Assembly: GCA_976551045.1 (NCBI GenBank)
Contig: CDPCPM010000391.1
Span: forward strand, 930,001-994,000
DNA length: 64,000 nucleotides
Origin: Glaucostegus cemiculus
Taxonomy: Eukaryota
Direction of reading: 5' to 3'
Shown piece by piece: positions 62,270-63,732 of this stretch (position 1 is the stretch's first letter; each line of letters starts with the position of its first letter). The notes under the pieces are model-generated. The model was not told where the DNA came from. It was given only the letters and a program-made list of their open reading frames with translations, and made no database searches. The position numbers were made by a program, and so were the translations under genes.

Positions 62270-62534
62270 CCCCCCCCCCCCGCACATGATGAGCCCTCCC
62301 GCCCCGTATCCTCCCGCCTCCACAGTGGTACAGTCCAGGTCCCGCCCGCCCGAGGGGAATGCGCGCATGCGCGGGATGGGAGTGACCAATGACAGGGCGC
62401 GGTCCCGCCCCCCGGATCCGGGCCTGGGACATCCGGTGCGAGCGGCGCCGTCACCTTGGCTCCGCGCCCCGGGAAGGTGCAGTTGAGCCGGGCGGTGGGG
62501 ACTGGGGCCGCCGCCTCCCTCCGTCCCTCCGCTG
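62270..62534 (+). promoter_or_regulatory. CpG-island promoter and 5' UTR of MRPL20
   Basis: CpG-dense; NRF1 palindrome GCGCATGCGC at 62363-62372; CCAAT at 62386; CCGCCC GC boxes near 62297, 62342 and 62405. Confidence 0.8.
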
Positions 62535-62621
62535 ATGGTTTTCCTCAGTCTCTCGCGTTGGATCCGGAGCCGCGGGCCCGACCGCTACTGGCGGGTCCAG
62601 GAGTTGCTGCAGCGGGCGCGG
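62535..62621 (+). CDS. MRPL20: 39S mitochondrial ribosomal protein L20, coding exon 1
   Basis: MVFLSLSRWIRSRGPDRYWRVQELLQRAR (87 nt); donor CGG|GTGAGG. Confidence 0.95.
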
Positions 62622-62633
62622 GTGAGGGCGGTT

Positions 62634-63205
62634 CCCGGGCCCAGGCCTCGGCCCCCGGGCCCCTCCCTCACCCGGGCCCAGGCCTCGGCCCCCGGGCCCC
62701 TCCCTCACCCGGGCCCAGGCCTCGGCCCCCAGGCCCCTCCCTCACCCGGGCCCAGGCCTCGGCCCCCAGGCCCCTCCCTCACCCGGGCCCCCGGCCCCTC
62801 CCTCACCCAGGCCCCCGGCCCCTCCCTCACCCCGGGCCCCTCCCTCACCCGGGCCCAGGCCTCGGCCCCCGGGCCCCTCCCTCACCCGGGCCCAGGCCTC
62901 GGGCCCCTCCCTCACCCGGGCCCAGGCCTCGGCCCCCGGCCTCTCCCTCACCCGGGCCCCCGGCCCCTCCCTCACCCCGGGCCCCTCCCTCACCCCGGGC
63001 CCAGGCCTCGGCCCCCGGGCCCCTCCCTCACCCCGGGCCCCTCCCTCACCCGGGCCCCTCCCTGCCCTCGGCCCCCGGGCCCCTCCCCGCCCTCGGCCCC
63101 CGGGACCCTCCCGGGCCCCACCCTCGACCCCCGGCCCCCTCCCTGCCCTCGGCCGCCGGGCCCGGCCCCTCCCTGCCCCCCCGGGCCCCTCCTGGCCCCG
63201 GCCCA
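62634..63205. repeat. C-rich minisatellite in MRPL20 intron 1 (37-bp unit with 18-30 bp variants)
   Basis: Unit CCCGGGCCCAGGCCTCGGCCCCCGGGCCCCTCCCTCA; degenerates after about 63060. Confidence 0.92.
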
Positions 63206-63324
63206 GTGCGGGGTTTCATAGGAAGCGAGAGCGCCCCAGCTGTGGGCAGCATGGGCACGGCGGGCCGAATGGCCTGATTCTGTGCTCGTCCTCCGTCTGC
63301 AGGTCGTCGAGTCAGGGTTGTAGA

Positions 63325-63556
63325 ATAATGCCGCACGGAAACAGGCCCTTCGGCCCGACTGGTCCATGCTGACCATCCTGCCCGTCCAGCTAGTTCCATG
63401 TGCCTGCTCCGAGCCCCTCCTTACCCATCTACTTGCCCTTTGAATGTTGTTAATGTACTTGCCTCAACTGCTTTCCATGGCAGCTCATTCCAGGTGCTCA
63501 CCATTCTCTGCGTGAAGGTGTAGCCCACTCAAGTCCCTTTTTAAATCTTTCACCTT
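63325..63556 (-). mobile_element. CR1 3' fragment in MRPL20 intron 1
   Basis: ACGCAGAGAATGGTGAG..CCTGGAATGAGCTGCCA and GGGCCGAAGGGCCTGTTTCCGTGC on the - strand. Confidence 0.75.
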
Positions 63557-63621
63557 AGACCCAGGGGTCTAAGGTCCTGACCCAAGGTCTGTTCTCATTC
63601 TTTTCTCCTTTGTTTCTACAG

Positions 63622-63732
63622 CATTTCCGTGGGCGGAAGAACCGATGCTACAGCCTGGCATTGCGGGCTGTCCGGAGAGCCTTCCTCTACTCCACCAAAG
63701 CCAGGAAGCTGAAGAAGCGGAACATGAGGATG
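63622..63732 (+). CDS. MRPL20: MRPL20 coding exon 2
   Basis: Acceptor TTTGTTTCTACAG|; [37 protein letters not shown] (111 nt), bL20 signature; donor ATG|GTAAAG. Confidence 0.96.

Follow-up and report, generated by a model that had tools for sequence, protein, structure and literature searches.

A C-rich minisatellite complementary to the donor of MRPL20 intron 1 in Glaucostegus cemiculus

The MRPL20 gene and its first intron

The window analysed here is a stretch of 64,000 nucleotides from Glaucostegus cemiculus (contig CDPCPM010000391.1, positions 930,001 to 994,000). Positions are given in the coordinates of this window unless a contig or a locus is named. Close to its 3' end the window contains the beginning of a gene that a first-pass annotation, made from the nucleotide sequence alone, called MRPL20, and this identity is well founded. 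Exons 2, 3 and 4 match the Pfam family Ribosomal_L20, and the four exons together encode a product of 149 amino acids with an intact frame, 138 of which are identical to a stingray protein (P0001). The closest homologues are found in rays, sharks and one chimaera. With exon 2 as a query only one place is found in the genome, as expected of a single-copy gene. Exon 4 lies from position 996707 of the contig (locus L009).

The features of the first intron and its surroundings are listed in Table 1. The donor of intron 1 reads CGG/GTGAGG, where the slash marks the exon-intron junction and intron position +1 is 62622. It is the best of the 40 GT sites in the region 62450-63621, and none of the other sites there is an alternative donor of similar strength. 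The frame of a transcript that retains intron 1 runs to a stop at codon 229, within the intron.

Table 1. Features of the first intron of MRPL20 and the adjoining exons (window coordinates)
Feature	Position	Strand	Description
MRPL20 exon 1, coding part	62535..62621	+	87 nt, 29 codons, ATG at 62535; N-terminus agrees with shark and ray MRPL20 proteins
MRPL20 codon 27, Arg (CGG)	62613..62615	+	contributes two pairs (-8 and -7); 6/6 shark and ray relatives have His
Exon-intron junction arm (-8 to +10)	62614..62631	+	contains the sole strong donor, -3 to +6 at 62619-62627
MRPL20 intron 1	62622..63621	+	1000 nt, GT-AG
Homogeneous C-rich minisatellite	62634..63057	+	14 units, one CCCTCACCC core in each
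First anti-donor arm	62662..62679	+	complementary to the junction at 16/18 positions
Degenerate tail, units of the 25-nt type without the core	63049..63204	+	best match to the donor 13/18, run of 5
MRPL20 exon 2	63622..63732	+	111 nt; PF00453

Three residues of the predicted protein, Arg27, His94 and Gln122, differ from all six shark and ray relatives. None of the 78 homologues in which exon 1 can be recognised has Arg at residue 27; all have His, Tyr or Cys there. Arg27 occurs in 1 of the 64 sequences of a second homologue alignment, and the six shark and ray relatives all have His. Residue 94 is Gln in 65 of 65 homologues and residue 122 is Arg in 66 of 66. The three residues are either true changes or assembly errors.

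Structure of the array

The array starts at +13, that is 12 nt into intron 1, and its tail ends at about 63204. It has a GC content of 0.86 and a skew of -0.45, and consists of head-to-tail units of tens of bases with variant units among them, all of which is typical of GC-rich minisatellites. The lengths of the units are, in order, 37, 37, 37, 37, 24, 24, 18, 37, 30, 36, 24, 18, 38 and 18 nt. The five 37-mers differ from each other by 0-1 bases, and this 5' part of the array, ahead of the degenerate tail, looks young and homogeneous.

The 37-mer corresponds to the 25-nt unit of the tail with an insertion of 12 nt, and the insertion is the donor-complementary stretch. The shorter variants of the unit are deletions between CCCGGGCCC-like words. 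The core is present in all 14 of the young units, although the deletion events behind these were few. Eight matches to a 19-base stretch of the unit are found in the 2.85 Gb genome, all of them at the MRPL20 locus, and thus the unit itself is local. A search for similar windows in other genomes found none. Elsewhere in the 64-kb window, a 14-nt unit is repeated about 99 times at positions 37307-38686.

Complementarity of the donor and the array

Of the 18 positions of the segment 62614-62631, which spans the exon-intron junction, 16 can pair with 62662-62679; the mismatches are at -4 and +8. Ten contiguous Watson-Crick pairs extend from -3 to +7, and the two arms are 30 nt apart. The eight-base core CCCTCACC has 14 copies within 62665-63050 and 4 further copies on the + strand in the remaining 62.5 kb, and the full 18-mer of the first arm is present in 8 copies in the array. 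The match and its geometry had been described in the first-pass annotation, together with a core that recurs about 14 times up to about 63050 and with donor-like words on the opposite strand of the array. The match and the copy count were reproduced, and the donor-like words can be read directly from the sequence. A longer arm of 26 nt was considered as added evidence and rejected, because the extension is only the array's own CCCGGG palindrome.

The significance of the match depends on the null model. When the repeat units are shuffled, the probability of at least 16 matches in 18 is 0.0013-0.0022 and that of a run of at least 10 is 0.011-0.015. The corresponding values for shuffles of the whole array are 0.025-0.060 and 0.125-0.128. 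The z-score of the predicted fold against shuffled sequences is -2.95 for 566 nt and -2.40 for 91 nt. The comparison with shuffles that had been proposed earlier thus places both the match (P 0.001-0.002) and the fold above chance as far as simple shuffles are concerned. If the nine-base core is held fixed and the rest is shuffled, however, the probabilities become 0.062 for at least 16 of 18 and 0.595 for a run of at least 10. Against the pool of real arrays of the genome, the donor match is only marginal.

Related arrays in the genome

The nine-base core is a common minisatellite word in this genome. A pattern of three cores has 954 matches, compared to 437 for its control. A donor word followed by two cores is found 36 times genome-wide, and a looser version of the pattern 42 times; some of these matches lie at the ends of other exons, with arrays behind them that share the same core but have unrelated units. 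The 36 matches, against 2 in a backwards control, gave the impression of a strong enrichment, but this fell after controls for order and word swapping (44, 11 and 27 matches). In the word-swap counts, the donor word is accompanied by the complementary array word in 80 cases and by a permuted word in 26, and a non-donor word in 46 and 10, respectively (odds ratio 0.67). These counts are raw, and dispersed repeats as well as overlapping matches inflate them; combinations able to form a hairpin are not in excess among them.

The specificity of the pairing was assessed on a set of 22 loci, comprising MRPL20 and 21 others that were chosen by eye from matches preselected for the core. Overlapping matches and copies of dispersed repeats were excluded, as was any locus whose upstream part was neither CpG-rich nor an open frame. 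The exon is confirmed by Pfam at 4 of the 21 foreign loci (ANF_receptor, 7tm_1, Xlink and PARP_reg) and is putative at the rest. The donors pair with their own arrays about as well as with foreign ones: the mean run is 7.5 versus 7.8 (P 0.93) and the mean best-of-18 is 11.7 versus 11.6 (P 0.41). Without MRPL20 the P values are 0.96 for the run and 0.60 for the best-of-18. On the 21 foreign arrays the MRPL20 donor finds a run of 9 in 18 cases, of 10 in one and of 8 in two, and reaches 15/18 in six. Furthermore, the MRPL20 array offers 10-11 consecutive pairs to 4 of the 21 foreign donors.

Arrays with the core follow GTGAGG, GTGAGT and GTAAG donors, and the bases that flank the core do not track the local donor. 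At +8 the MRPL20 array has a T, where a copy of the MRPL20 donor would have a G, and the TCC context before the core is also present in the arrays of L028 and L040. The proposal that the arm is in any special sense a local copy of its own donor is not supported, because the core is common, follows unlike donors without tracking their flanks, and carries this T. Since the core fills unrelated arrays beside other exons, the MRPL20 match is likely to be a by-product of an ordinary repeat. Matches that are 'antisense to their own donor' come cheaply in a genome where core arrays sit after many donors, and caution is needed in reading them; the right null model is a set of swapped donor-array pairs and not shuffled sequence.

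Several other occurrences of the core deserve mention. Unrelated post-donor arrays that share CCCTCACCC are found at L028, L040, L039, L114, L118, L120, L124, L128, L134, L137, L138 and L140, on the intron side of position ~1500 of each locus. Two families of dispersed repeats, found at L047, L051-L053, L056, L058, L059, L063 and L084-L103, have two copies of the core close to a G-rich word and thereby inflate the genome-wide counts of the pattern. Loci L032, L130 and L132, on contigs C306, C406 and C477, are nearly identical, CpG-rich, and have donor-like junctions that differ and are followed by a C-rich tract. They form a small multi-copy family.

Neighbouring CpG islands and the orientation of arrays

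A region of 491 kb of the same contig (650001-1141059) contains eight CpG islands, one of which is a retroelement-like frame as judged by eye. Six of the seven non-retroelement islands have a GC-rich array, C-rich on the sense strand in four cases and G-rich in two, that starts 8-35 nt past a putative donor. Each array at the neighbouring islands has an unrelated unit, and the core is present in MRPL20 only. The first-pass annotation had suggested that other CpG-island first introns be searched for the same pattern. At these islands the position of the arrays, just after putative donors, is shared, and the core is not. An array close to the donor seems to be the norm in this part of the contig. 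A long frame resembling a retroelement integrase, judged by eye, lies in a CpG-rich stretch at contig positions 661400-662300, and immediately upstream of the CpG island that comes next after MRPL20 lies an array of 2.1 kb (L010:3-2129) built from a 21-nt unit.

The core is also found in the G-rich orientation after at least two exon-like frames, L309 and L320, the latter with a Pfam VWA_4 match. The anti-donor orientation thus shows no sign of being favoured, although the numbers are tiny, and too small to exclude a preference for C-rich arrays. This survey covered 53 loci among the matches listed (100 of 190); 10 of them start at a donor-like word, and 2 of these 10 follow an open coding-like frame. 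Two broader counts of orientation (954 and 359 matches) are uninformative, being swamped by matches within arrays. Selection that purges G-rich arrays as decoy donors and spares C-rich ones was considered and found no support, with two G-rich cases against one C-rich case (L118) for the same donor class and contig range. The G-rich arrays at L309:645-800 (+ strand) and L320 (- strand, from 667 downwards) are full of sense-strand GGTGAG words and are potential arrays of pseudo-donors.

Origin of the array

The reading that we favour, with a probability of roughly 0.7, is that the array is an ordinary GC-rich, strand-skewed minisatellite, the core of which happens to complement the G-rich MRPL20 donor, and that the complementarity is likely a by-product and plays no part in tuning. 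Arrays of either skew, C-rich or G-rich, appear directly after putative donors at most of the nearby CpG islands, and core-bearing arrays appear after many unlike donors. The 37-mer is the older 25-nt tail unit enlarged by 12 nt, and the shorter variants are deletions between CCCGGGCCC-like words. The new unit probably spread, starting at the 5' end, by slippage or unequal exchange between these words.

Alternatively, the mirror symmetry could itself be causal. A template switch during replication would have placed a copy of the junction in the older tail repeat as the 12-nt insertion, or would later have copied the arm back into the exon, changing His27 to Arg; slippage would then have spread the unit, and no regulatory role would be involved. 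We regard this neutral origin as unlikely, albeit worth serious consideration. MRPL20 does have the best fit of the 22 loci (16/18, compared to a maximum of 15 among the 21 foreign arrays), the insertion coincides with the complementary stretch, the arms are only 30 nt apart, and Arg27, absent from all six shark and ray relatives, adds two pairs. In the accessible part of the literature, template switching is known both to create and to perfect such stems, and the inverted repeats that it leaves are likewise short, nearby reverse-complement hairpin arms (PMC8794818). The MRPL20 arms, in contrast, are imperfect: -4 is unpaired inside the very stretch that is supposed to have been copied, and the other mismatch, +8, follows the context that is common to the core. 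The probability of the match given the core is only 0.06, and a duplication of the CCCGGGCCC word within the array would account for the insertion just as well. The argument from Arg27 is weakened by residues 94 and 122, which are also odd and are located outside the donor stem, so that one odd residue within the three codons of the stem is weak evidence.

Predicted folding of the donor region

The predicted cost of opening the donor from -3 to +6 is 12.7 kcal/mol in the absence of young units, 22.0 kcal/mol with one unit and 21.5-24.1 kcal/mol with 2-14 units. This pattern is unchanged at 20 degrees (versus 37) and with a span limit of 150 nt. The donor stem has a predicted energy of about -36 kcal/mol, and +4 is paired to 99% at equilibrium. 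For comparison, -10.9 kcal/mol was computed for a nine-base U1 duplex. The stem over the U1 site that the first-pass annotation had envisaged is thus predicted by folding and covers -3 to +6, and at equilibrium the donor would be shut.

MRPL20 is single-copy and intact, from which we infer that splicing of intron 1 gets past the stem. In a growing transcript the predicted opening cost is 5.8-13.8 kcal/mol while the 3' end is at +9 to +54, and 20.5 kcal/mol at +59, giving an interval of roughly 50 nt before the donor closes. A single unit is predicted to suffice for an 18-pair stem across the donor, to which extra units add nothing. The donor may be bound co-transcriptionally, ahead of the emergence of the arm at about +55 to +59, or proteins may hold the stem open; in either case the intron would still be spliced.

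The predicted opening cost of the MRPL20 donor is 23.2 kcal/mol, compared to 4.9-14.2 in five neighbouring CpG-island loci. When the MRPL20 exon is placed on the 21 foreign arrays, the cost is 17.9 +/- 3.2 kcal/mol, with 19 of the 21 at 15 or above and a maximum of 22.0 versus 22.5 for its own array; MRPL20 is thus first of the 22 in opening cost as well as in fit. The folding results suggest that the strong stem is mostly what a G-rich donor forms on meeting any such array. Locus L040, with 37 cores in 700 nt, is predicted to bury its own donor as strongly as MRPL20 does (22.0 kcal/mol).

A single-arm kinetic switch, in which the first unit or two close the donor stem if transcription is fast or U1 is late, would cause some transcripts to retain intron 1 and be lost. 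The presence of the array would matter, but its length would not. The gap between a stem of about -36 kcal/mol and a U1 duplex of about -11 is consistent with such a switch, as are the sharp rise in opening cost at +59 and the lack of another donor of similar strength among the 40 GT sites. Donor-sequestering duplexes are described as changing splicing at BRSK2, GAK and NISCH in the accessible portion of one report (PMC12519161) and at SMN2 and MAPT in that of another (PMC7404189). Nevertheless, we consider the switch improbable. Foreign arrays would sequester the MRPL20 donor almost equally well, and selection is therefore not required to account for the stem; the array appears to be young and homogeneous; and equilibrium folding overstates blocking, because it would abolish the sole donor of a single-copy gene.

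Combining the two preceding alternatives, the DNA hairpin of the junction and the repeat would have swapped sequence in both directions by template switching, which gave rise to the young unit and turned a conserved His codon of exon 1 into Arg, and the RNA stem would be a gate on the only donor that depends on transcription speed and is set by the first unit, not by the length of the array. If this improbable combination were true, a minisatellite and an exon would be altering one another's sequence by way of a hairpin, and splicing would be affected.

The first-pass proposal that copy number tunes retention, more units supplying more competing anti-donor strands, is scarcely credible despite the existence of 14 cores and the link between VNTR length beside a donor and aberrant splicing at human ABCA7 (PMC13747324, in its accessible part), because the predicted opening energy saturates at one unit and stays flat from 1 to 14 units at both temperatures, with or without the span limit, and +4 pairs only with units 2 and 4 in the full ensemble: the donor pairs with one arm at a time, so that copy number is no dial by this route.

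Comparison with known systems

The literature searched, which included few subscription papers, yielded no report on a minisatellite that is antisense to the donor beside it, nor on a repeat in an MRPL20 intron. The known systems below are compared on the basis of the accessible parts of the papers cited.

Intronic arms predicted to cover the U1 site, as at MRPL20, are described at MAPT exon 10 and SMN2 intron 7 (PMC7404189) and at BRSK2, GAK and NISCH (PMC12519161). Those are single arms at alternative exons, supported by probing or oligonucleotide evidence, whereas the MRPL20 arm is repeated, follows a first exon and is predicted. If the MRPL20 array is functional at all, it would act like the MAPT and SMN2 donor stems.

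The VNTR in intron 18 of human ABCA7 (PMC13747324) is likewise a C-rich tandem array directly after a donor. It is polymorphic in length and associated with aberrant splicing, whereas the MRPL20 array is known from one assembly. The accessible text on ABCA7 describes no donor-complementary unit, in contrast to that of MRPL20. The two arrays agree in adjoining the donor, but the predicted donor-pairing effect at MRPL20 does not grow with the number of units.

The 37-bp VNTR in intron 7 of human F7 (PMC1557585) is also a 37-nt minisatellite at an exon-intron boundary with a unit related to the donor. Its copies span the boundary in the sense orientation and, according to the part of that paper available, are silent pseudo-donors over which the authentic donor still wins. 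The MRPL20 copies are antisense and lack a sense donor, there being no GT site of similar strength in the array, which rules out a donor-duplicating VNTR of the F7 type.

The structured (AC)m-(GT)n introns of fish (PMC4691745) likewise have a C/A-bearing repeat at the 5' end. In the accessible account of them, a partner repeat is present at the intron's 3' end and pairing aids splicing, whereas the MRPL20 intron is without a partner. Neither GTGAG nor GGGTG occurs in 63210-63621, and bridging of the intron ends by the MRPL20 array was rejected since the last 410 nt of the intron contain no complementary repeat.

Donors with a predicted burial of more than 20 kcal/mol, such as those of MRPL20 and L040, occur at first exons, and are therefore natural test cases for the speed of U1 commitment during transcription.
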